Shown: positions 588-43,583 of the stretch, piece by piece | Position numbering within the stretch: the stretch's first letter is position 1 | How the letters are laid out: each line of letters starts with the position of its first letter | Origin: an uncultured Gammaproteobacteria bacterium | Lineage (GTDB): Bacteria; Patescibacteriota; Patescibacteriia; Magasanikbacterales; GWA2-37-8 | NCBI GenBank assembly: GCA_964624315.1 | Contig: CAZUWJ010000001.1 | Span: 21,160-85,159, forward strand | Reading direction: 5' to 3' | DNA length: 64,000 nt | Translations under genes and position numbers: made by a program | Notes under the pieces: model-generated | The model's input: the letters and a program-made list of their open reading frames with translations, nothing else | Databases searched by the model: none | Told to the model about the DNA's origin: nothing

Positions 588-974
588 TTAGGGAATAGAG
601 GCGATTGCCTCGATCTCGACCATAACATCTAGCGGCAGTCGTGCCACCTGAAAGGCAGCCCGAGCCGGAGGATCATTTGGAAAGTATGTGGCATAAACGG
701 CGTTCATTTCCTGGAAACCACCTAGGTCCTGCATAAGAACAGTGGTCTTGACCACCTGATCCATGGAACCACCAGCTTCCTCCAGAATGGCCTTCATATT
801 TTCTAAGGCCCGGCGAGTTTGTTCTTTAATACCACCTTCAACCACCTTGCTGGTAGCAGGATCAACGGGTAGCTGTCCTGAGATGTACACCACACCATCT
901 TTCACTATAGCTTGGCTATACGGACCAATTGCCGATGGTGCTTTATCGGTACTCACTACTTTAAGTTTGCTCAT
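588..974 (-). CDS. ridA: RidA/YjgF/TdcF family reactive-intermediate deaminase
   Basis: 128 aa: TDKAPSAIGPYSQAIVKDGVVYISGQLPVDP ... RAAFQVARLP, full-length RidA signature. GC content is clearly above the window background. Confidence 0.85.
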   Translation of the reverse strand: MSKLKVVSTDKAPSAIGPYSQAIVKDGVVYISGQLPVDPATSKVVEGGIKEQTRRALENMKAILEEAGGSMDQVVKTTVLMQDLGGFQEMNAVYATYFPNDPPARAAFQVARLPLDVMVEIEAIASIP

Positions 975-1167
975 ACAAATCTCCTTGGTTCAAAAGCGTT
1001 TAAGTTAACTTAATAATACACTCTTTTTAGAAAAAGTCAAGGGCTAAAGAAGGAAATAAAAAATATCGCATAACTTAAAAAGGCATCTAGTTTTTTATAG
1101 CAATTGCAATATAACTTGAGGATAAAAAAATAGCGTACTAAAAAACATCGCTTTCACGATGTTTTTT

Positions 1168-1261
1168 GTGCACTTGCTCGGTCTAGAACCAAAGAAGTCT
1201 GGTCAGCCAAGGGCTTTTTCAAAGGTTTAATAAAATTTAGTAATAAGCCTATCGGTCGGGG
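1168..1261. repeat. 94-bp direct repeat DR1 (distal flank of DGR cassette), pseudo-tRNA 3'-half-like
   Basis: The first 59 bp are identical to 4590..4648 and the remainder is near-identical. An AACATCGctttcaCGATGTT hairpin plus T-run lies immediately upstream. Confidence 0.8.
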
Positions 1262-1382
1262 ATATTTTTAAGATTTTAAGGAGTTTTTAGCAATGTCCCA
1301 AGGATAATTATTATTGCCTAAAATAAGCAATTTATAGTGTGGGACAGGATATATGTTACGAATTGTCTTTTTAAAGTTAATA

Positions 1383-1420
1383 GAAAAAAACAGGCACCTA
1401 CTAAAACAGTAGGTGCCCAA
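1383..1420 (-). terminator. rho-independent terminator after DGR target gene
   Basis: Minus-strand hairpin GGGCACCTACTgtttTAGTAGGTGCC followed by a T-run. It is preceded by the GC hairpin CCGCCgaagGCGG (1431..1443). Confidence 0.55.
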
Positions 1421-1505
1421 AAATCTCGACCGCCTTCGGCGGAAAGTCAAAAATCAATTGAAAAAGATTCAAAAGATTCAAGATTTCCAGACCTCAAGAG
1501 TCGAT

Positions 1506-2369
1506 TTACTGCGGGAGAAAGCCAGATGCCGAACCACAGCCGTCGCGGACACCGCCGACATCGCTCGTGCCGAGCCCGACCCCGCCGTCGCCGAAGAAGA
1601 AGTAGAATGCCTCGGAAAAACGGCCACCGGCCTCTGGAGCGAATTCATCACCTGGGCAGTCAATCCAAAGGTCATCGTAATTCATCAGACGTTCGGGGTG
1701 AGTCAAAATCATGATTCCGACAGCGAAACTTCCTAGACCAAACTCACTGGCATTCATAATTTCGCGTGCCCGACGGACGGATTTACCACGATGGTTCAAT
1801 CCAAACTGAGCCGGAACAACGAGAATGTCGTGATCTTTCTGATCATCGCCGAGCTTCTGGAATGAATTGACTGACTTCTGCGACTGACGCAGGTACTGCG
1901 CGCTGAGCTGACCTTCACGGTAGTTGTATAAATTGCCGTCTCTGGTCTGTTTGATCAAGTTGAGTACCTTTTGCACGGCTTCGCCGTAGGTCGGGGCGAT
2001 CTTCTCCCATCTTGGAATGGCGAACCATCCCTCGGCATTTGACGGGATATCTCCGTTGGCAAGAATTTCATCCACTGTGCCAAGTTCCGGGAACAACTGA
2101 TGCAGAGTAGCGACCTGCTCGGCGATATCCTTACCCTTGGGTTTGTAACCCGAAAGGTACTTATAATTGGACTCGACTTCCTCGTGGGCGAACTGGTTGT
2201 TCACGGAGAGTTCACGAATGGCGGAGATGATTATCGCCTGAAACTCGTCACCTTTCTCGATGAGCTTCTGGAGTCCGTCTTTATCGAGACCGACTTCGGT
2301 TAAGGCCTTATCCGCGGAATCTTCAATGAACCTTCTGTACTGTTTCTTCTGTCCTTTGGTGATCGCCAT
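1506..2369 (-). CDS. DGR target (variable) protein; C-terminal 43 codons are encoded by the VR
   Basis: 287 aa, about 50% GC, with an AGGAGG SD upstream. The 3' end is the VR. VR-encoded tail YFFFGDGGVGLGTSDVGGVRDGCGSASGFLPQ corresponds to TR-encoded YFNFNDGKVKLDTNDVDNVNDNYGSASGFIPK (AAC/AAG codons). Confidence 0.75.
   Translation of the reverse strand: MAITKGQKKQYRRFIEDSADKALTEVGLDKDGLQKLIEKGDEFQAIIISAIRELSVNNQFAHEEVESNYKYLSGYKPKGKDIAEQVATLHQLFPELGTVDEILANGDIPSNAEGWFAIPRWEKIAPTYGEAVQKVLNLIKQTRDGNLYNYREGQLSAQYLRQSQKSVNSFQKLGDDQKDHDILVVPAQFGLNHRGKSVRRAREIMNASEFGLGSFAVGIMILTHPERLMNYDDLWIDCPGDEFAPEAGGRFSEAFYFFFGDGGVGLGTSDVGGVRDGCGSASGFLPQ
1509..1637 (-). repeat. DGR variable repeat (VR)
   Basis: 129 bp aligned base by base to TR 2873..3001. 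There are 105 identities and 24 mismatches, and every mismatch is an A in the TR replaced by G, T or C in the VR. Confidence 0.85.
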
Positions 2370-2872
2370 AGCGTCATCCTCCTTCTAAAATTACTGGAAC
2401 CGCTCCAGTAGGCGTTGCCTCTAATGAGGCGAGTGTACTAAATATATTAATATATATCCAATATGCTCGCCTCATTTTATGCAGTAAAATTAATGTTTTT
2501 AAAGAACAATTTAATAGTCTAGTATATCATAAATTGGGAGTTTTGTCAATGTTTGATTTTTAGCGGATGTAAATATGATAATTACTGTTAATTTTATCTT
2601 TTGTATGATAACATAAATTTGAGCATAGGCTAATGTTTGGCAGTTTACGAATTGCCAACGCCGAACTCTCTCTTTAACTAAAACAGCCAGAGTCGTGGCA
2701 ATTAAGGTTGTCATGAGCGTGTTGGTTTAAGGAGATACTGCTTGCTTTTACCTAGTACGGATTTCCATTTGGAATACCATCAAATAAAATACAGGGTTGA
2801 AAATATATAATTCCACAGCCAGTGGAAAGTAAAATTTAAGACCTAGTGATAATAGATGGGTAGAAGTGATAA

Positions 2873-3001
2873 CCAGAAGCCGATGGCCGTTTTTCCAAGG
2901 CATTCTACTTCAACTTCAACGACGGCAAGGTCAAGCTCGACACGAACGATGTCGACAATGTCAACGACAACTATGGTTCAGCATCTGGCTTTATCCCGAA
3001 G
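2873..3001 (+). repeat. DGR template repeat (TR)
   Basis: Invariant partner of the VR. It is A-rich at variable sites (AAC/AAG codons in the VR reading frame) and has no long ORF. The six-frame ORFs 2856..3125 and 1478..1675 are artefacts of this repeat. Confidence 0.85.
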
Positions 3002-3014
3002 TCTCTCCTTATTA

Positions 3015-3043
3015 AAAAGAGTATCCACTAAACGGATACTCTT
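3015..3043. terminator. hairpin between convergent TR and avd
   Basis: AAAGAGTATCCactaaacGGATACTCTTT inverted repeat lying between the TR end and the avd stop codon. Confidence 0.35.
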
Positions 3044-3390
3044 TAAAATTTTACTGATTTTATCCAACCGCCCAACATTCGTCCGATTTCATCAACTATA
3101 CTTTCTAAAGCGACGTACTTTTTAATATCAATTGTTTTAGTGTCTTTCATTAGGCGTATAAAAACACGTAACATGTTTAATTTTATACTACACTTCTCAA
3201 GTGTGGGTAGTTTGTTAGCTTTTTGTTCACCACTGGCTTTAATAATGCTTTCAATTATATCTAAGATTAATTTATCTCCGCGTTCAAAAATTGTATATCT
3301 ATCTTGTTTGGACACAATCTTGCGATATCCATGGAAAAGTTTATATAAATCGTAAGATTTTTTAAAAATTGGAATATCGAAGTCGTTCAT
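3043..3390 (-). CDS. avd: DGR accessory variability determinant (Avd; four-helix-bundle family)
   Basis: 115 aa. C-terminus DEIGRMLGGWIKSVKF matches the Bordetella bAvd C-terminal motif (aEvGRiLGsWiarv). Its size and position between TR and RT fit Avd. It lies on the strand opposite to TR and RT. Confidence 0.6.
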   Translation of the reverse strand: MNDFDIPIFKKSYDLYKLFHGYRKIVSKQDRYTIFERGDKLILDIIESIIKASGEQKANKLPTLEKCSIKLNMLRVFIRLMKDTKTIDIKKYVALESIVDEIGRMLGGWIKSVKF

Positions 3391-3413
3391 AAAATGTTTT
3401 AACTAATTTATTT

Positions 3414-4463
3414 ATGAGAATTTACCGTAATTTATTTGATAAAATTATTTCTCTAGAAAATTTAATGTTGTCTTGGGAAAAATTTCGTCGTGGAAAAACC
3501 GGAAAACCTGATGTACAAAAATTTGAGTTTAATTTAGAAGAAAATATTTTTAATCTTCATCGGGAATTGAAAAATAAGACATATATACATGGCAAATACA
3601 CTGGATTTTATATTACTGACCCAAAGACTCGACATATACATAAGGCAACTGTGAAAGACAGGGTATTACACCACGCTATTTTTAGAATTTTAAACCCTGT
3701 TTTTGAAGAGACTTTTATCTCTAACTCATTTTCTTGTAGAGTAAATAAAGGAAGTCATTTGGGAGTTGAGAAACTTGCTAGTATGATTAGGTCTGAAAGT
3801 AAAAATTATACTTCACCATGTTTTGTTTTAAAGTGCGATGTTAAAAAGTTTTTTGATTCAGTTGATCATCATATACTTTTGAAAATTATTAAAAGAAGAA
3901 CATGTAATAATAGCACGAGTTGGCTAGTGGGTCAAGTGATAAAAAGTTATTCAGCCAAGCAAACCGACCTTTTTAACCGACAGGGAATACCAATAGGTAA
4001 TTTAACTTCTCAATTGTTTGCCAATATTTATTTAAACGAGCTTGATCAGTATATTAAAAACAAATTAAAGGTAAAATATTATGCCAGATATACAGATGAT
4101 TTTGTTATAGTTTCCAAGAATAAAAAATATTTAAGAGGGCTGTTAGACCCTCTTAAAGAAATGCTATTTGAAAAATTAAAATTAGAACTTCATCCGCAAA
4201 AAGTTTCCATTGAAAATATTAATAGCGGGATAGATTTTTTAGGTTATGTTATTTTTCCACACCATACTCTGATTCGTCAAAAAACTAAACGTCGAATGTT
4301 TAAAAAACTAAAAAGAGCAGTTAAACAATACAAACAGAAAGAAATTAGTCAGGAAACTTTAGAACAAAGTTTACAATCCTACTTAGGAGTTTTATCTCAC
4401 GCCAACGCTTACAAATTAAGTCAAGATTTAAAAAATATGTATTGGTTTTGGTTGAATGAGTAA
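3414..4463 (+). CDS. DGR reverse transcriptase
   Basis: 349 aa. YARYTDDFVIV (YxDD) catalytic motif, QGIPIGNLTSQLFANIYLNELD motif ([I/L]GxxxSQ, diagnostic of DGR RTs versus group II QGxxxSP) and N-terminal LENLMLSWEKFRRGK. Confidence 0.85.
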   Translation: MRIYRNLFDKIISLENLMLSWEKFRRGKTGKPDVQKFEFNLEENIFNLHRELKNKTYIHGKYTGFYITDPKTRHIHKATVKDRVLHHAIFRILNPVFEETFISNSFSCRVNKGSHLGVEKLASMIRSESKNYTSPCFVLKCDVKKFFDSVDHHILLKIIKRRTCNNSTSWLVGQVIKSYSAKQTDLFNRQGIPIGNLTSQLFANIYLNELDQYIKNKLKVKYYARYTDDFVIVSKNKKYLRGLLDPLKEMLFEKLKLELHPQKVSIENINSGIDFLGYVIFPHHTLIRQKTKRRMFKKLKRAVKQYKQKEISQETLEQSLQSYLGVLSHANAYKLSQDLKNMYWFWLNE

Positions 4464-4589
4464 AATTATTTTTTAATTCAAAGTCAATCAAAAAAACACC
4501 ATAAATTGGTGTTTTTTTGATGTATCTCGGTCACTAGCTGTAATTACTAGAGGGTCAACCCTCGTCGCTAGAAACCGTGCACTAGAGTG

Positions 4590-4682
4590 TGCACTTGCTC
4601 GGTCTAGAACCAAAGAAGTCTGGTCAGCCAAGGGCTTTTTCAAAGGTCTTCTGAAATTTTGCAATAAGCCTCTCGGTCGGGG
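4590..4682. repeat. direct repeat DR2 (proximal flank of DGR cassette), pseudo-tRNA 3'-half-like
   Basis: Copy of 1168..1261. Its reverse complement parallels the 3' half of tRNA-Arg 7652..7723 segment by segment (anticodon-stem, variable loop, T-arm, acceptor; ends in GTGCA). Confidence 0.8.
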
Positions 4683-4683
4683 T

Positions 4684-5676
4684 TTAAATTTGTGAACTAA
4701 ACGGCAAAGTCTGGATAAAGTTTGTCATAAAATTCCAGTCTGGTTTACCGTTTTTAGTTGGGAGTTTTATTTTAATATCACCAGTTCTTTTGCTGGCAAC
4801 TCTACCATAATTAAAACGATATTTTTCTTTATTTATTATTGTTGCAATAAAAAGTAATATTGCCGTATTTACATTATCAAATTTTGCAATTAATGCTTTC
4901 GTTCGTGTTCCTAAATAATAATTTTGTGGTTGAGTGGTAGCAAAGAAATTACCCCTATCTGCAAGAGTTAAAGAATTTTCATGATTATATAATTTATAGT
5001 TGGGTAATTCACTTGTGTGGGCGACAACTCCGTTGTTGATAGCACTGTGTCCAATAACTGGATTTTTACCAATTAAACTCGAATAATATAACAAATCTTT
5101 TCCAGTTTCTATGTTAAATAAATCACTTAATTTGTAAATTTTCCATTTATTTATATTTAATTGTGGTGTTGCTAAGTTTTTATTTGGTTTTTTAGCATAT
5201 TGATAATTGTGCGTGTGTTCGCCAATAAACTTTTCCATAAAATTCCAGTCTGGTTTACCATTTTTAATTGGGAGTTTTATAGAACATGATTTTAAACGTT
5301 CTTGACTGGCTTTTCGTCCGTAATTATAGCGGTATTGTTCTCGATTTATAATTGTCAATAAAAACATCGCAATATTTTTTGTCATTTCAAACTTTGGAAT
5401 TAGCTTTTCTACATGGTCGCTGGCAGAAAAATCAGTATCTTGATAAGAACAATAGCCAAGCACAGCACTGTCAATGATCAAAACACCGCCTTTTTCAGTG
5501 GAGAAATTATAAAAACCTTCAACGCCGTTATTTGTGGCTTGAGTGGTTACAAATGGATTTTTTCCGATTCCGTATTCTTGTAATTCTAGAATAGGTGTTG
5601 TTTTACTTCCTTTAATTTTAAACAAATCGGAAAGATTAAAACTTTGCCAGTTTGTTGTATTAATTTTATTTATCAT
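4684..5676 (-). CDS. Type IIB (BcgI-like) restriction-modification specificity subunit with two target-recognition domains
   Basis: 330 aa. Two internal repeats share the motif NYGR.AS.R...IKLP.KNGKPDWNFM (a duplicated TRD). It overlaps the upstream R-M gene by 11 bp. Confidence 0.6.
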   Translation of the reverse strand: MINKINTTNWQSFNLSDLFKIKGSKTTPILELQEYGIGKNPFVTTQATNNGVEGFYNFSTEKGGVLIIDSAVLGYCSYQDTDFSASDHVEKLIPKFEMTKNIAMFLLTIINREQYRYNYGRKASQERLKSCSIKLPIKNGKPDWNFMEKFIGEHTHNYQYAKKPNKNLATPQLNINKWKIYKLSDLFNIETGKDLLYYSSLIGKNPVIGHSAINNGVVAHTSELPNYKLYNHENSLTLADRGNFFATTQPQNYYLGTRTKALIAKFDNVNTAILLFIATIINKEKYRFNYGRVASKRTGDIKIKLPTKNGKPDWNFMTNFIQTLPFSSQI

Positions 5677-7540
5677 CTTTTATTCCTAATTTGAATAATG
5701 TGAATTGTTTTATTGTATTAGCAAAATCATCAACAGATAAATCAGAATAATTAGTTTCCATATATGCTTCAGCGCACCATTCATTATCAGCGGTAATTTT
5801 TTTAAGGATAGACAAACCAGCAATATCTTTGTGGTTTCGATAATTTGTAATCCAATTATATTTTATACCATCTTTATAATTGTTTTCTGTAGCACCTTCA
5901 AACTTACCAAATAAGTCAATCCTACCTTTGTTTTTTCGTTTAACAAAACCATCGTCTTTGTAATAGCCAAGATAAACTTCTTTATCGGATGGATGTGGAC
6001 GTTTGGCGGTGAAAACCATTATACAAGACACCACCCCGACTTTAGAATTAAAGAATAATTCATCAGGCATTGAAAAAACCGCTTCCAATGTATGGTATTT
6101 TAAAATTTTTTTCTTGTAGTCGTATACTTTACCACTAGTGGCTAATGCTTCTTGCATTGGGACAATTGCTGCGCATAAACCGCCTTGTGATAAACAATCG
6201 AGATTGTTTAAAATAAATTCATATTCATCAATATCTGTCTTTTTATCATTTTTATATGGGGGGTTTAGTAATCCAACATTTGGCTTTTTTTCTTTAACGG
6301 ATTTAATAATATCTTTATCAAAACAACTACCGTGATTAATGTTGGTTTTACCATCTTGGTGAATGAACATGTTTGAGCAAGCGAGAGGAAATATTTTATC
6401 AGACTGTTCTGTGCCAATCAGTTGTTTTGATTTAATTGATTTTATTTTTTCTTCATCACCTTGGGCATTTTTAATCATAATATTCATTGCAGAAACTAAG
6501 AAGCCACCAGTTCCTGTACAATTATCATACACAACACTATCTTTGTTTACTTGAACTAATTCTGCCATGAATTCGGTTATGTGTGGAGGAGTTAGAACAA
6601 TACCTAAGCCTTTGTCGGAATTGGCATAACGTAAAAATTCAATATAAAGCTGTCCTAGAGCATCAAAATATTCATGGGTTTTAATAAAATCTTGAATATT
6701 TTCTTTTATATCAGTGATAATATCTCGTAAATCAGTATTATTTTTATTAGTTAAAGCTGTATTGCCAACAATTAATTTGAAGCGGTTTTCCAAAATTTTT
6801 AATTTAGTCTCACCAATTTTACCAGTTTCAAACATGTTATGGGTTGTTAAAATCAGAAAATCGGCAAGTTGCTTGGCATCAGAGTAGTTAATATAAGTTG
6901 TTGCAAAGCTATTGTTTTCAAGAGCGATTAAAATACAAGCAATCAGTAAGGCTCTTTCGTCTTCAGCAATTTTTAGTTGATGAAGTTTTTTGTTAAGTTT
7001 TTGTGAGAAAGCAAGTAATGATTGATAATCTTGACGGAACTTCTCTGGACTTTTGATATATCCATTTAAATAATCATTGAGCGGTAAAAGTTTGTCATCA
7101 AAAATTGGTGTGGCAATTTGTTCACCTTTAAGTTGTAAAAAATGAGAAATTTTTAATTCATTTGGTCTTTCACCGCTTATAGCAATAGCAAGAACATCAA
7201 AACTTTTAGATAGAAATGAACTATAAAGTTTGATACCGTCTATTGCATAGTCAGCATATTTATCAGATGTTTTGCTTTTGTGTTTGGAGGTGTTTCCTTT
7301 GCACTCTACGGCAATAATAAAATTAGGGTTGTTGCGATTTTGAATAATAAAATCTGGACGACCTTTACCAGAGCCGTCTTTTTTAGATGCGTTAGATAAC
7401 ATTTTGTTGATTTTGTCATTTCTGGAAGTTTGACGTTCATAAATCCAGTCATGTTTATTTGTATCAAGAGCCACCGCGTCAGCATACTTTTTTACAAAAT
7501 CTTCAAAAATTGTTTCTGTATTTGTTTCGTTTACTGTCAT
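5666..7540 (-). CDS. Type IIB (BcgI A-like) bifunctional restriction endonuclease / N6-adenine DNA methyltransferase
   Basis: 624 aa. N-terminal PD-(D/E)xK (GRPDFII ... IAVECK), then MTase motif I VYDNCTGTGGFL and motif IV NPPY (gamma-class order). Confidence 0.7.
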   Translation of the reverse strand: MTVNETNTETIFEDFVKKYADAVALDTNKHDWIYERQTSRNDKINKMLSNASKKDGSGKGRPDFIIQNRNNPNFIIAVECKGNTSKHKSKTSDKYADYAIDGIKLYSSFLSKSFDVLAIAISGERPNELKISHFLQLKGEQIATPIFDDKLLPLNDYLNGYIKSPEKFRQDYQSLLAFSQKLNKKLHQLKIAEDERALLIACILIALENNSFATTYINYSDAKQLADFLILTTHNMFETGKIGETKLKILENRFKLIVGNTALTNKNNTDLRDIITDIKENIQDFIKTHEYFDALGQLYIEFLRYANSDKGLGIVLTPPHITEFMAELVQVNKDSVVYDNCTGTGGFLVSAMNIMIKNAQGDEEKIKSIKSKQLIGTEQSDKIFPLACSNMFIHQDGKTNINHGSCFDKDIIKSVKEKKPNVGLLNPPYKNDKKTDIDEYEFILNNLDCLSQGGLCAAIVPMQEALATSGKVYDYKKKILKYHTLEAVFSMPDELFFNSKVGVVSCIMVFTAKRPHPSDKEVYLGYYKDDGFVKRKNKGRIDLFGKFEGATENNYKDGIKYNWITNYRNHKDIAGLSILKKITADNEWCAEAYMETNYSDLSVDDFANTIKQFTLFKLGIKDDK

Positions 7541-24351: not shown

Positions 24352-24616
24352 AATCTGTTAAATAAATACTGTTAGAGAGAGCGGTATTTTACACAAAACT
24401 CTTGTTTTATGTAAAATTCCCCTCTTTATCCAAGAGGGGTTTGTTCTTTAAAATTAAGGGTTATTTAAAAAGATTTGTTGTTTTCTTCCTAGCTATTGTT
24501 CTAAGCATTTATTTACTAAATACTTATTGGTAAATGGATGTTTAGAACAATAACACTGACAGTGCTTAGTGCCTAGCTTAGGGCCTTATAAAGTAAGTAG
24601 GAACAATGAGAAGACC

Positions 24617-25186
24617 ATGAAAAATTTTAAAACCATAGCAGGAGACCTGGCCTTCCTAATGGCCATCGCGATTTTCACCGCCACCTTCATGGGGTGTGGC
24701 GATGGTATTAGCGAAATCATGACCCAAGAAGACCTAATGGAAGGTATTGTGCCTTCTTTTGGCGATGGTGTCATGACCTCCCTCCCAGAGGGTTATTATG
24801 GACAGGTGTTCGCCTGTTACGACACCCCACACACTGATCGGATTCAAGATCCCTCCAATGTCCTTTTCGAGAATAAAAACTTGAAAGGATACTACGACAA
24901 GTGGTCTGGAAAGGTTTACCTCCAGAAAAAAGACGGGGAACAAAACAAAATCGTAATACAGTGTAGAGGGGAAGAAGTGCAAGAAGTGCACTATGTTGCC
25001 GAAGCATGGGAGGGACGATCCTCCGGAAGTATGAAATGCTACTACATCGTCGACGGCTGTCGTAACACGGAAAACATCTGTTTCCGCTACGAACAAGACG
25101 GAAGCAGCTCCACCACTTTCTCTCCAACAACAGCCCGAAGGGCTGAGTTGGATAGCCTTTGTATGGGCTTCCAAAATTTCAAATAA
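24617..25186 (+). CDS. GC-rich secreted cysteine-rich lipoprotein (hypothetical), paralog A
   Basis: Start MKNFKTIAGDLAFLMAIAIFTATFMGCG (signal peptide plus lipobox). About 50% GC, 10 Cys. Antisense six-frame ORFs 24734..25174 and 24771..25130 are artefacts. Confidence 0.5.
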   Translation: MKNFKTIAGDLAFLMAIAIFTATFMGCGDGISEIMTQEDLMEGIVPSFGDGVMTSLPEGYYGQVFACYDTPHTDRIQDPSNVLFENKNLKGYYDKWSGKVYLQKKDGEQNKIVIQCRGEEVQEVHYVAEAWEGRSSGSMKCYYIVDGCRNTENICFRYEQDGSSSTTFSPTTARRAELDSLCMGFQNFK

Positions 25187-25453: not shown

Positions 25454-25891
25454 ATGCAACTCATGGCCAAAGCTACGATGTTTGCCATTCTTATTTCTAT
25501 TTTCGCAATCGCCTTTGGGGGTTGCGGACATGAAGAAACATGGGATCAAGATGCGACCCTGCCCATCCAATCCCTCTTAGAAGAAGAAGGGGGCTGGATA
25601 GGTATGGGTAGTAATGAGCTTGACCAAACGATTTATTATAAAGATGCATACTACCACTTTGAGAAGGGAGACCAGCATCTCAAGGTGAAGTGTTATCCTC
25701 TAAAATATAAGGGTAAGCTCAACCACCTCTTTAATTACCTCGTATACACGCCCAGAGGGGAAGACGAACGCGAGGAGTTTATTTTTTGTGAGGGCCTACT
25801 GCCATGTAGGTGGCAGCAACATGACTTTAACGTCCGGTTTTATCTAAAACCAGGCACAAGGGCCATCCTGGAAAATATCTGTTCAATGTAA
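25454..25891 (+). CDS. GC-rich secreted cysteine-rich lipoprotein (hypothetical), paralog B
   Basis: MQLMAKATMFAILISIFAIAFGGCG signal peptide plus lipobox. AGGAGA SD. Shares the ENIC motif and Cys spacing with paralog A. Confidence 0.5.
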   Translation: MQLMAKATMFAILISIFAIAFGGCGHEETWDQDATLPIQSLLEEEGGWIGMGSNELDQTIYYKDAYYHFEKGDQHLKVKCYPLKYKGKLNHLFNYLVYTPRGEDEREEFIFCEGLLPCRWQQHDFNVRFYLKPGTRAILENICSM

Positions 25892-43082: not shown

Positions 43083-43583
43083 TTAGAGAGCTCGGTAAAC
43101 GATTTTTTCAGCGAACTCGCCATAGTCTATGCCAAGCTTAAGTACAATACGCTTGCAAAAAGCCTCCCAAACCTCATCATCCAAACCTTTTGGGCGGAGG
43201 TCGTCATATCCATCAGTCGGTTGAAATGCTTCTACCAAGGTAGCCTTGGCATACAGTTCATTTGCATCAAAACCATGGACCTCCACAAGATCGCGGAGTA
43301 TCTGTAGACTAGCCGTGGTAGAGTCTCCGTCTATATCACGGGGAATAGTCATCATGGAATCCATGACAATTACTTCAAGGTCGTTGAAATTCTTAATAAT
43401 AGATTCAATAACACCGTGATAGTCCCCCATAAAACCGATGTAACTATCCTTGTTATCGAACATATCACCCCAGCTTAACACATGGTCAGCCGGAATCTTG
43501 CCTTTGTCTTTTAACCTCTTTGCGATCTCGTTGGCCAAAAGCTCGGGAAATGGTCGTGAAGTATCCACTATCAAAATTTTCAT
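43083..43583 (-). CDS. hypothetical protein, GC-atypical orphan
   Basis: 166-aa ORF at roughly 46% GC versus about 30% in its flanks. Strong AGGAGCAGGAGAGAG SD. No recognisable motif. Confidence 0.35.
   Translation of the reverse strand: MKILIVDTSRPFPELLANEIAKRLKDKGKIPADHVLSWGDMFDNKDSYIGFMGDYHGVIESIIKNFNDLEVIVMDSMMTIPRDIDGDSTTASLQILRDLVEVHGFDANELYAKATLVEAFQPTDGYDDLRPKGLDDEVWEAFCKRIVLKLGIDYGEFAEKIVYRAL

Follow-up and report, generated by a model that had tools for sequence, protein, structure and literature searches.

Does the long inverted repeat that joins the end of a protein-coding gene to a site beside a reverse transcriptase (RT) gene mark a working diversity-generating retroelement (DGR), and what RNA would such an element use? 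We addressed this in a 64,000-nt stretch of DNA, referred to here as the window, using an adenine-only template repeat (TR)/variable repeat (VR) pair, a bRT-like RT, Avd, a predicted C-type-lectin-like target end and covarying RNA at the TR. As a whole, the locus is best explained, with a probability of roughly 85%, as a chromosomal DGR of candidate-phyla-radiation (CPR)/Patescibacteria type, B3 with an inverted target, together with the RNA mechanism proposed below. This DGR type is already catalogued in CPR bacteria; the unexpected part is the folded RNA around the template, with helper elements 5' of the TR where the Bordetella phage model has them on the 3' side.

Cassette organization

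The cassette runs target (−), TR (+), avd (−), RT (+), so that TR, reverse-strand avd and RT stand in the B3 order (Table 1). The same TR-avd-RT core was found in 36 loci, and the DGR parts in the window appear complete and intact.

Table 1. Features of the DGR locus (window coordinates)
Feature	Position	Strand	Basis or remark
95-nt direct repeat, left copy	1167..1261		repeat finding
Intrinsic-terminator-like hairpin	1391..1419	−	ends target transcript
Small GC hairpin CCGCC-GAA-GGCGG	1430..1442	−	5-bp stem, 3-nt loop; 66 nt 3' of VR
Target (variable protein) gene	1506..2369	−	287-aa ORF
VR	1508..1637	−	last 43 target codons and first base of stop codon
IMH-like VR 3' end	1508..1535	−	in relatives, 24-nt A-free block, then fixed difference
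Long hairpin, 32-nt arms	2416..2483	−	repeat finding; presumed 5' UTR of target mRNA
Promoter-like site for target gene	2521..2549	−	TTGACA, 17 nt, TG-TATACT; 11/12 matches; consensus match only
Candidate extended -10 (TG-TATGAT) for TR RNA	2602..2609	+	inferred; at conserved 'TG.TATAAT' position of family alignment
Conserved structured leader of TR RNA (~255 nt)	2616..2870	+	covariation and MFE folding
Leader helix P1	2628-2662	+	covarying leader structure
Leader helix P2	2684-2724	+	covarying leader structure
P0 5' strand UAAGGAGA	2728-2735	+	pairs with 3004-3011
Linker UACUGC	2736-2741	+	directly after P0 5' strand
P3 5' strand	2742-2753	+	covarying leader structure
P4	2757-2780	+	followed by A-rich single strand 2781-2793
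P5	2794-2844	+	7-nt apical loop
P3 3' strand	2858-2869	+	abuts TR 5' end
TR	2873..3002	+	ungapped comparison, repeat finder; last 28 nt (2975-3002) form IMH*-like block
P0 3' strand UCUCCUUA	3004..3011	+	directly 3' of TR/VR homology; pairs with 2728-2735
Stem-loop SL3, 10-11 bp	3014..3044	+	between TR and avd stop codon
avd accessory gene	3043..3390	−	115 aa; strand opposite to TR and RT
DGR RT gene	3414..4463	+	349 aa; Pfam RVT_1; bRT 8ub7 best PDB match
Palindromic terminator-like hairpin	4487..4521		3' of RT gene
95-nt direct repeat, right copy	4588..4682		93% identical to left copy; first 59 nt identical

The template and variable repeats

The repeat finder returned the TR and VR as gapless 130-nt arms with 24 mismatches, and an ungapped comparison of 2873-3001 (+) with the reverse complement of 1509-1637 gave 105 identities and 24 mismatches over 129 positions, reproducing the alignment in a preliminary description of this DNA. 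All 24 mismatches lie at TR adenines (19 A>G, 3 A>C and 2 A>T), and 12 of the 36 TR adenines keep their base in the VR. Mismatches at other bases, which that description had named as grounds for refutation, number zero in the 129 nt. Assuming that mismatches fall at random over the TR (36 A in 129 nt), the probability of 24/24 on A is (36/129)^24 = 5e-14. This A-only pattern recurs in 35 independent loci.

The claim that every substitution reflects adenine mutagenesis nevertheless needs one amendment. Although all the differences do sit on TR adenines, the A at TR 2999, opposed by C in the VR (CGAAG vs CGCAG), did not arise by random mutagenesis, since the same TR/VR difference is fixed in 33/34 related loci; on sequence comparison it is a difference of the IMH*/IMH type. 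In relatives it follows a 24-nt A-free block that is the same in TR and VR, an arrangement whose IMH/IMH* function is putative. The 21 variable codons give a theoretical repertoire of ~10^18 peptides, a refinement of the ~10^15 or more given earlier. No second VR-like copy was found within the window when TR adenines were treated as wildcards.

The target gene and its flanks

As stated in the preliminary description, the VR forms the 3' end (codons 245-287) of the target ORF. The target protein has an N-terminal three-helix region followed by a predicted distant C-type-lectin-fold domain that the VR closes. Searches of its sequence against Pfam, NCBIfam and PDB sequence profiles gave no matches, the variable domain matched no FGE-sulfatase or DUF1566 profile, and Foldseek against the PDB returned nothing significant. 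Of the C-type-lectin/FGE-like fold that the preliminary description proposed looking for, the C-type-lectin part is predicted. Compared with the solved C-type-lectin variable proteins TvpA (2y3c) and Mtd (1yu0), a relationship that Foldseek misses, the target is only 10-12% identical and has the additional N-terminal helical region. Neither a signal peptide nor a transmembrane segment is evident, and the protein looks cytoplasmic, in line with the earlier description of it as non-secreted-looking. Its gene has a GC3 of 0.61 against a median of 0.23. For 26 related target genes the nearest 2.5 kb or more holds neither an RT nor an avd, and therefore targets persist without a linked DGR.

Both the GC hairpin and the terminator reported 3' of the VR are present, the latter as a terminator-like hairpin. 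The GC hairpin is a candidate DGR target hairpin/cruciform that also occurs in the class A relatives L005, L013, L041, L052 and L063, with similar ones in L036, L073 and L074. Such hairpins were detected 3' of the VR in 21 of the 36 related loci (some being terminators) and not found in the other 15; this element is not universal among DGRs (PMC5758913). At the other end of the gene, L005 and L026 each show a counterpart of the long hairpin that carries compensating changes.

The reverse transcriptase and Avd

The best PDB match of the RT is Bordetella bRT (8ub7, E 4.9e-46), with group II RTs matching far worse, and its IGNLTSQ and YTDD align to IGSLTSQ and YMDD of bRT. The PDB match and these motifs (motif 4 [ILV]GxxxSQ, YxDD) place it in the DGR clade, where the preliminary description had put it. 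The neighboring gene, previously called Avd-like, matches Pfam bAvd above threshold (E 2.4e-17; 63.8 bits, cut-off 40) and NCBIfam DivGenRetAVD slightly below it (E 9.4e-21; 74.1 bits, cut-off 80), and also weakly matches Bbp7 (4dwl). The gap between avd and the RT gene is 23 nt and contains no obvious RT promoter.

A covarying RNA surrounds the template

RNAalifold predicts 75 pairs in the leader, 55 of them with compensatory changes. Pairing reaches 93.0% in 32 loci and 93.5% in 94 loci, against 41-51% with slid partners, and the observed pair counts were attained by 0/500 shuffles. MFE folding of the window sequence alone yields the same leader helices (z −3.59), and all RNA helices are intact in the window copy. 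A pattern scan found ~100 further loci in which the leader keeps a constant spacing to avd and RT; the leader matches no Rfam family. All 11 SL3 pairs covary in the 32-locus set, as do 9/9 counted pairs in the 94-locus mapping. Runs of A and T border SL3 in most loci, as in a bidirectional terminator; a simple scan made no terminator call for it in the window. A TR-internal hairpin (RNAalifold columns 413-445) was dropped because its pairs show only G-C/G-U variation and no compensatory change.

The covarying RNA is 5' of the TR, and the locus thus departs from the Bordetella-type topology of a structured TR-strand spacer between TR and RT. Only 41 nt separate the TR from the avd stop codon, and the remainder is antisense avd.

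We propose that an RNA of ~435 nt would be transcribed from ~2616 to SL3 (~3050) and bound by RT and Avd. Synthesis of cDNA would be cis-primed at the P0 duplex, just 3' of the TR, whose 3' strand is proposed to be the template strand of a template:primer duplex. The TR would be copied with misincorporation opposite adenines until copying halts at the P3 duplex, and the cDNA would then take the place of the VR; donor and recipient would be told apart by the A-free IMH-like block and the fixed A/C difference. We further propose that SL3 is the counterpart of the stem-loop to which Avd binds in Bordetella, a bidirectional terminator, or both.

By the order of its elements, the leader from 2728 to 2869 may correspond to Bordetella Sp 47-139: both would present a primer strand, a linker, a stop strand, a short stem-loop, an A-rich single strand and a long stem-loop with a heptaloop. 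Because this order matches but lies 5' of the TR, the DGR RNA might be a circular permutation of that of Bordetella, and we consider the chances evenly divided as to whether B3-type CPR DGRs use such a permuted RNA. If they do, the primer strand, stop-duplex strand, short stem-loop, A-rich 'thumb-ring'-like strand and long RT-binding stem-loop would all be 5' of the TR, and only the P0 template strand and the Avd-binding stem-loop would be 3' of it. An identical RNP would thus form from an RNA whose parts are joined in another order, which would have freed avd to take up its inverted position directly behind the TR. We found no description of a permuted RNA for B3-type CPR DGRs in the published DGR literature searched, and upstream coverage in the survey by Handa et al. 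extends only 40 nt from the TR. Short likenesses to Bordetella Sp (UUAC..GGUU and GAUACUG) were also seen; they carry no weight as evidence.

Comparison with known DGRs

Like the DGR of Bordetella phage BPP-1 (order mtd-avd-TR-Sp-brt), the window element combines adenine-specific TR-to-VR differences, LTSQ and YxDD in the RT, Avd and a VR that closes a (here predicted) C-type-lectin-type domain at its 3' end. The two also share an A-poor, IMH-like end at which TR and VR differ, a stem-loop directly 3' of the TR and a duplex abutting the TR 5' end. Unlike in BPP-1, avd is inverted between TR and RT, the sequence 3' of the TR is just 41 nt long, and the long structured RNA (~255 nt) is 5' of the TR, where BPP-1 has its 140-nt Sp on the 3' side. 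The target is encoded on the opposite strand and looks cytoplasmic, and the host is the chromosome of a small AT-rich genome rather than a phage.

The TR-(avd)-RT arrangement is known from CPR bacteria as B3 (Wu et al. 2018, PMC5758913) and DGR clade 2 (Roux et al. 2021, PMC8144416). Gene order and host group match the window element, targets without a recognizable domain or membrane anchor are shared with these DGRs and with the unknown VR classes of Wu et al. 2018, and we see no essential difference, so the element is a member of this group; the papers covered make no mention of the conserved leader RNA. As a DGR it is one further example of a class whose abundance in Patescibacteria was already established, but a covariation-supported RNA of ~435 nt is now defined around its template, compact enough to be of use in engineering DGR-based mutagenesis. 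It indicates that functional RNA can escape surveys restricted to TR-adjacent sequence. Should it prove to be the Bordetella spacer in permuted form, nature would thereby supply a test of the connections that the RT-Avd-RNA particle cannot do without.

Alternative explanations

A duplicated gene fragment that diverged by ordinary mutation near an unrelated RT would account for the existence of the 130-nt inverted repeat and for nothing else. This explanation is already refuted by the confinement of all differences to one base of one copy and by the recurrence of that pattern across independent loci; the RT and Avd are, moreover, DGR-specific. It is also highly improbable that the RT stems from a group II intron, a retron or a defence system. 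The NCBIfam group II RT/maturase model does match it at E 9e-49, but with 166 bits against a cut-off of 300, whereas bRT leads the solved relatives by 26 orders of magnitude, an Rfam scan of 950-4750 turned up neither an intron nor msr/msd nor any other RNA family at E<=5, and Avd and the TR/VR pair adjoin the gene. Group II or retron identity, the second ground for refutation named in the preliminary description, was therefore not borne out by the profiles, and its interpretation of the locus as a DGR is supported by the A-only repeat pair, the bRT-like RT and Avd.

Two further alternatives accept the DGR but not all of the reading preferred here. It is unlikely, though in keeping with some observations, that the element is decayed or dormant, its VR recording past retrohoming in a target that is no longer diversified. 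The VR is identical in three assemblies, one of which has 12 other differing sites at the locus, and the 26 unlinked related targets point the same way. However, consensus assemblies hide minority haplotypes and these assemblies may derive from related samples, the RT, avd and target ORFs are full-length, the catalytic YTDD is intact and so is every RNA helix. We likewise doubt that the upstream RNA stands outside the RT machinery, as a regulatory leader or small RNA for TR or target expression, while read-through antisense avd serves as a Bordetella-type spacer. Consistent with this, Handa et al. found stem-loops just 3' of the TR and upstream/downstream duplexes in 207/278 DGRs including those of CPR (a count based on 40 nt upstream and 100 nt downstream of the TR), SL3 received no terminator call in the window, and the RT lacks an obvious promoter behind avd. 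On the other hand, P3 and P0 clamp both TR ends to the leader with compensatory changes, the leader mirrors the element order of Sp 47-139, the A/T runs around SL3 in most loci are terminator-like and the ~100 further loci keep the leader at its fixed distance from avd and RT.

Flanking repeats

An exact 23-mer from the 95-nt flanking repeat had no match in the genome-contig and metagenome-contig collections searched, and an unoccupied ('empty') site without the DGR was sought and not found. The repeat matched no Rfam family and was called as neither tRNA nor tmRNA; tmRNA, SRP RNA and RNase P RNA were discarded as identities after inspection by eye. Its two copies bracket the whole cassette, and their folding z-scores are ordinary, with stability coming mostly from the adjoining terminators.

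Identity of the element

Base-by-base alignment of 2873-3001 (+) with the reverse complement of 1509-1637 gave 129 positions with 105 identities and 24 mismatches, all of which lay at adenines of the template repeat (TR; 19 A→G, three A→C and two A→T), and 12 of the 36 TR adenines were unchanged in the variable repeat (VR). Since the 129 nt contain 36 adenines, all 24 mismatches would fall on adenine by chance with a probability of 5e-14. A repeat finder returned the identical pair as 130-nt arms (1508-1637 and 2873-3002), and a search of the window with TR adenines as wildcards found no second VR-like copy. In the frame of the 287-aa target ORF (1506-2369, − strand), the changed bases are mostly at codon positions 1 and 2 of AAC, AAG, GAC and AAT, and the 21 variable codons allow about 10^18 peptides, which refines the estimate of up to about 10^15 or more in the preliminary description. 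The adenine specificity claimed there also survived realignment, which gave no non-A mismatch, but one of the 24 positions, TR 2999, is structural rather than mutagenic because the TR/VR difference at that site is fixed in 33 of 34 related loci. In these loci the last 24 nt before the repeat end are adenine-free and the same in TR and VR, and are followed by the single fixed difference (CGAAG in TR, CGCAG in VR), beyond which the two repeats agree again for two or three bases. The block and the difference behave as IMH and IMH* do in the Bordetella element (PMC5758913).

The RT ORF (3414-4463, +) matched Pfam RVT_1, and its closest solved relative was the Bordetella phage bRT (8ub7, residues 4-337) at E = 4.9e-46, compared with 2.8e-20 for the best group II RT and about 1e-18 for retron-type RTs, which argues against an origin in either of the latter groups. 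The NCBIfam group II model scored 166 bits on this RT, under its cut-off of 300; NCBIfam includes no DGR RT model. The motifs previously read as DGR-specific aligned IPIGNLTSQLFANIY on bRT IPIGSLTSQLFANVY and YTDD on YMDD. The proposed Avd-like gene (3043-3390, −) was confirmed by Pfam bAvd (63.8 bits, cut-off 40) and fell just short of NCBIfam DivGenRetAVD (74.1 bits, cut-off 80). Rfam searched over 950-4750 at E ≤ 5 returned no intron, retron or other RNA family. On the TR/VR pattern, the bRT-like RT, the Avd and the lack of a rival Rfam family, the element is therefore a diversity-generating retroelement (DGR), and the original interpretation holds. In Wu et al. 2018 (PMC5758913) the order TR(+), avd(−), RT(+) is named 'Architecture B3, TR-(avd)-RT', and CPR variable repeats mostly remained in classes of 'unknown VR'. 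CPR DGRs fall in clade 2 of Roux et al. 2021 (PMC8144416), and their targets lack transmembrane or other recognisable domains. As a DGR, the element is an ordinary member of this already described CPR class.

Features of the cassette and its surroundings (window coordinates)
Feature	Position	Strand	Remark
95-nt direct repeat, left copy	1167-1261		brackets whole cassette
Terminator	1391-1419		downstream of VR
Small hairpin	1430-1442		CCGCC-GAA-GGCGG, downstream of VR
Degenerate tandem repeats	~1450-1500	−	YTTGAR / GAATCTTTT, between VR stop codon and GC hairpin
P1	2628-2662	+
P2	2684-2724	+
P0	2728-2735 with 3004-3011	+	UAAGGAGA paired with UCUCCUUA
Linker	2736-2741	+	UACUGC
P3	2742-2753 with 2858-2869	+
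P4	2757-2780	+
A-rich single strand	2781-2793	+
P5	2794-2844	+	7-nt apical loop
SL3 (stem-loop)	3014-3044	+
95-nt direct repeat, right copy	4588-4682		brackets whole cassette

Related loci

Counting the window, 36 of 80 fetched genome loci carry a TR and avd beside the target, with a detectable RT in 32 of the 36. The core TR(+)-avd(−)-RT(+) is common to all 36. Most of them have their target upstream and in the same orientation, and an inverted target is seen in the window plus nine others (L005, L007, L013, L025, L026, L041, L052, L060 and L063). The GC hairpin and terminator reported downstream of the VR were both located; the hairpin recurs in inverted-target relatives and was not detected in every locus. 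The tandem repeats between VR and hairpin are kept across the family.

Over 35 distinct TR/VR pairs, 469 TR adenines were kept, 397 changed to G, 176 to T and 137 to C; the 84 non-A mismatches include many at the ragged ends of the fixed 135-nt frame. A→G thus makes up 56% of the changes across the 35 loci and 79% (19 of 24) in the window, so that the G bias of the window is a stronger version of a family trend. Either a misincorporation preference of the RT or selection favouring codons for Gly, Asp and Ser could underlie this bias.

A further 26 targets, for which both flanks extend over at least 2.5 kb, have neither RT nor avd nearby (e.g. L009, L011, L012, L020 and L024). They show hypervariable positions as in the linked targets and an adenine-poor VR (10.8% A), and so are targets either served in trans or orphaned.

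A conserved RNA around the template repeat

The TR is followed by the avd stop codon after only 41 nt, and this 3' tail has a uniform layout in every locus: UCUCUCC-like bases, a few nucleotides and a 10-11-bp stem-loop that runs up to the stop codon. On the other side, about 255 nt upstream of the TR (the leader) are conserved in sequence even where the RTs of two loci share only 50-60% identity. For 32 non-redundant loci, RNAalifold predicted 75 pairs, and compensatory changes were present in 55. After addition of P0, a long-range helix spotted by eye, 93.0% of cells were paired, versus 41-51% when partners were slid by 1-3 columns, and double changes occurred in 59 of 77 pairs; none of 500 shuffles reached the observed values.

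We used a two-motif leader pattern to scan metagenomes and recovered at least 120 loci. About 100 of these have avd(−) and RT(+) at fixed offsets and a target of the same family (23-71% identity), and about 10 lack avd, RT and target despite room for them and are probably chance matches. With 94 sequences, 93.5% of cells were paired versus 42-50% when slid, and compensatory cells numbered 1154 versus about 200. The minimum-energy fold of window positions 2616-3050 recovered P1, P2, P0, P3, P4, P5 and the 3' stem-loop (z = −3.59).

A2735, at the end of the 5' strand of P0, is invariant in the 94 loci. Because the five core pairs of P0 are almost invariant, its covariation support comes from a few informative variants: UAAGGAGA/UCUCCUUA in the window, GGGGAGA/UCUCCCC in one relative (L081) and an 11-bp extension in another (L036). 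The leader motif GCCGAACUCUCUCU (2660-2673) is a near repeat of the TR 3' junction CCCGAAGUCUCUCC (2995-3008), and an alternative pairing or switch is possible since both could pair with GGAGA (2731-2735).

Relation to the Bordetella RNA

In the cryo-EM particle of the Bordetella element, the spacer downstream of the TR begins with an Avd-binding stem-loop directly after the TR. Next come a primer strand, which pairs with the TR 3' end and has the priming adenosine as its last nucleotide, a linker of two nucleotides, and the strand that forms the 'cPRT Stop' duplex by pairing immediately upstream of the TR. A short stem-loop and adenosines follow, then a 13-nt single-stranded 'thumb ring' and, last, a long stem-loop that binds the RT and contains two interior loops and a heptaloop (10.1101/2023.10.23.563531). 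The CPR RNA at 2728-2869 follows the same order: the P0 5' strand up to A2735, the linker, the P3 5' strand, the P4 stem-loop, a conserved A-rich single strand, P5 (interior loops, heptaloop) and the P3 3' strand, which stops 1-3 nt short of the TR. On the other side of the TR lie the P0 partner and then a stem-loop placed like the Bordetella Avd-binding element.

The CPR template RNA is thus apparently a circular permutation of the Bordetella DGR RNA, with the roles of its elements inferred from order, size and position. If the 3' end of the Bordetella spacer were joined to the segment upstream of the TR, and the resulting circle cut between the Avd-binding stem-loop and the primer strand, the CPR connectivity would result. 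Such a permutation would account for the TR/VR homology ending 1 nt before P0, for the 12-bp duplex abutting the TR 5' end, where Bordetella cDNA synthesis stops, and for the inverted avd right behind the TR. A published survey covering the RNA elements of 278 DGRs was limited to 40 nt on the upstream side of the TR and 100 nt on its downstream side, and our search of the literature, whose coverage is incomplete, turned up no account of the upstream domain. What is added to the described class is a conserved template RNA with an apparent permutation, a feature open to testing.

The P1 and P2 loops (2645-2650 and 2703-2706; family consensus GUUUACGGAUU and AUUACGGUU, window GUUUACGAAUU and AUUAAGGUU) resemble the thumb-ring sequence CACGUUACACGGU of Bordetella phage BPP-1 (L205, spacer 82-94), which may be coincidence.

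The target family

The target has no Pfam or NCBIfam match. At E ≤ 1e-3 it has 1864 homologs, the majority about 287-293 aa long. Identity to the target is 55-78% for most of the best 120, and homologs with a named source come from Patescibacteria. An exhaustive profile search gave 2027 clusters at the 50% identity level, and 248 GTDB species genomes encode a relative. The protein body is highly conserved across the family, and the last 43 residues are hypervariable. A structure model built from 143 sequences, including 50%-level representatives, reached pLDDT 96.4 and pTM 0.90. The C-type-lectin-like fold raised earlier for the C-terminus is favoured by this model with moderate confidence, but Foldseek gave no match at E < 1, C-type lectins being recurrent among the weak matches. 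Residues ~80-287 are predicted to form a distant C-type-lectin-fold domain behind a three-helix N-terminal region and, at the same moderate confidence, the VR would supply its last strands. For a very large unannotated family this adds a candidate fold. No hydrophobic leader or transmembrane segment is apparent in the target sequence, which the preliminary description had called non-secreted-looking; this agrees with the published remark on CPR targets (PMC8144416).

The target has the highest GC3 of 58 window ORFs (0.61; median 0.23, ribosomal proteins 0.14-0.28), and the RT (0.22) and avd (0.27) are host-like. In nearly all related loci the target is 10-30 points above its flanks in GC, with or without an adjacent DGR. 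Other GC-rich window ORFs (588-974, 24569-25186, 25454-25891 and 43083-43583) may be foreign. Between the promoter-like site of the target and its start codon lies a hairpin with 32-nt arms (2416-2483), an equivalent of which, with compensating changes, occurs in the inverted-target relatives L005 and L026. Among some family members and loci (P0094, P0104, P0041; L059, L068, L069, L147) there are whole-domain internal tandem duplications (about 480 aa) or two paralogous targets beside one DGR.

Strain comparison and neighbourhood

The ORFs of the element and all RNA helices are intact. An ENA assembly (L001) is 99.76% identical to the window over 8.4 kb, differing by eight clustered RT mismatches, three SNPs and a 9-nt indel at 1461, which is one unit of the tandem repeats gained or lost. 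Its TR and VR are those of the window, and a Logan contig is identical to the window over 1197-3295. Since the VR is identical in the otherwise differing L001 and in the Logan contig, there is no sign of VR turnover at the consensus level. The eight RT mismatches fall within 36 nt (3566-3601), which suggests strain recombination or an assembly mosaic.

The two copies of the 95-nt direct repeat are 93% identical, with the first 59 nt identical. Among the loci compared the repeat is confined to the window and L025, where a homologous element brackets the DGR in another gene neighbourhood (L025 positions 2017-2152, 3614-3746 and 7106-7232); an SSF transporter gene next to tRNA-Lys is bracketed there as well, by a third copy, and at its 3' end the L025 element resembles the 3' end of tRNA-Lys and its terminator. 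The 95-nt repeat received no Rfam, tRNA or tmRNA call, and no recombinase accompanies the bracketed cassette. The arrangement looks like insertion of the cassette at a repeated site. Directly adjoining the cassette is a type I restriction-modification pair, HsdS and HsdM (4684-7540), with the usual internal repeat of 56 nt in the HsdS gene (4715-4770 and 5225-5280).
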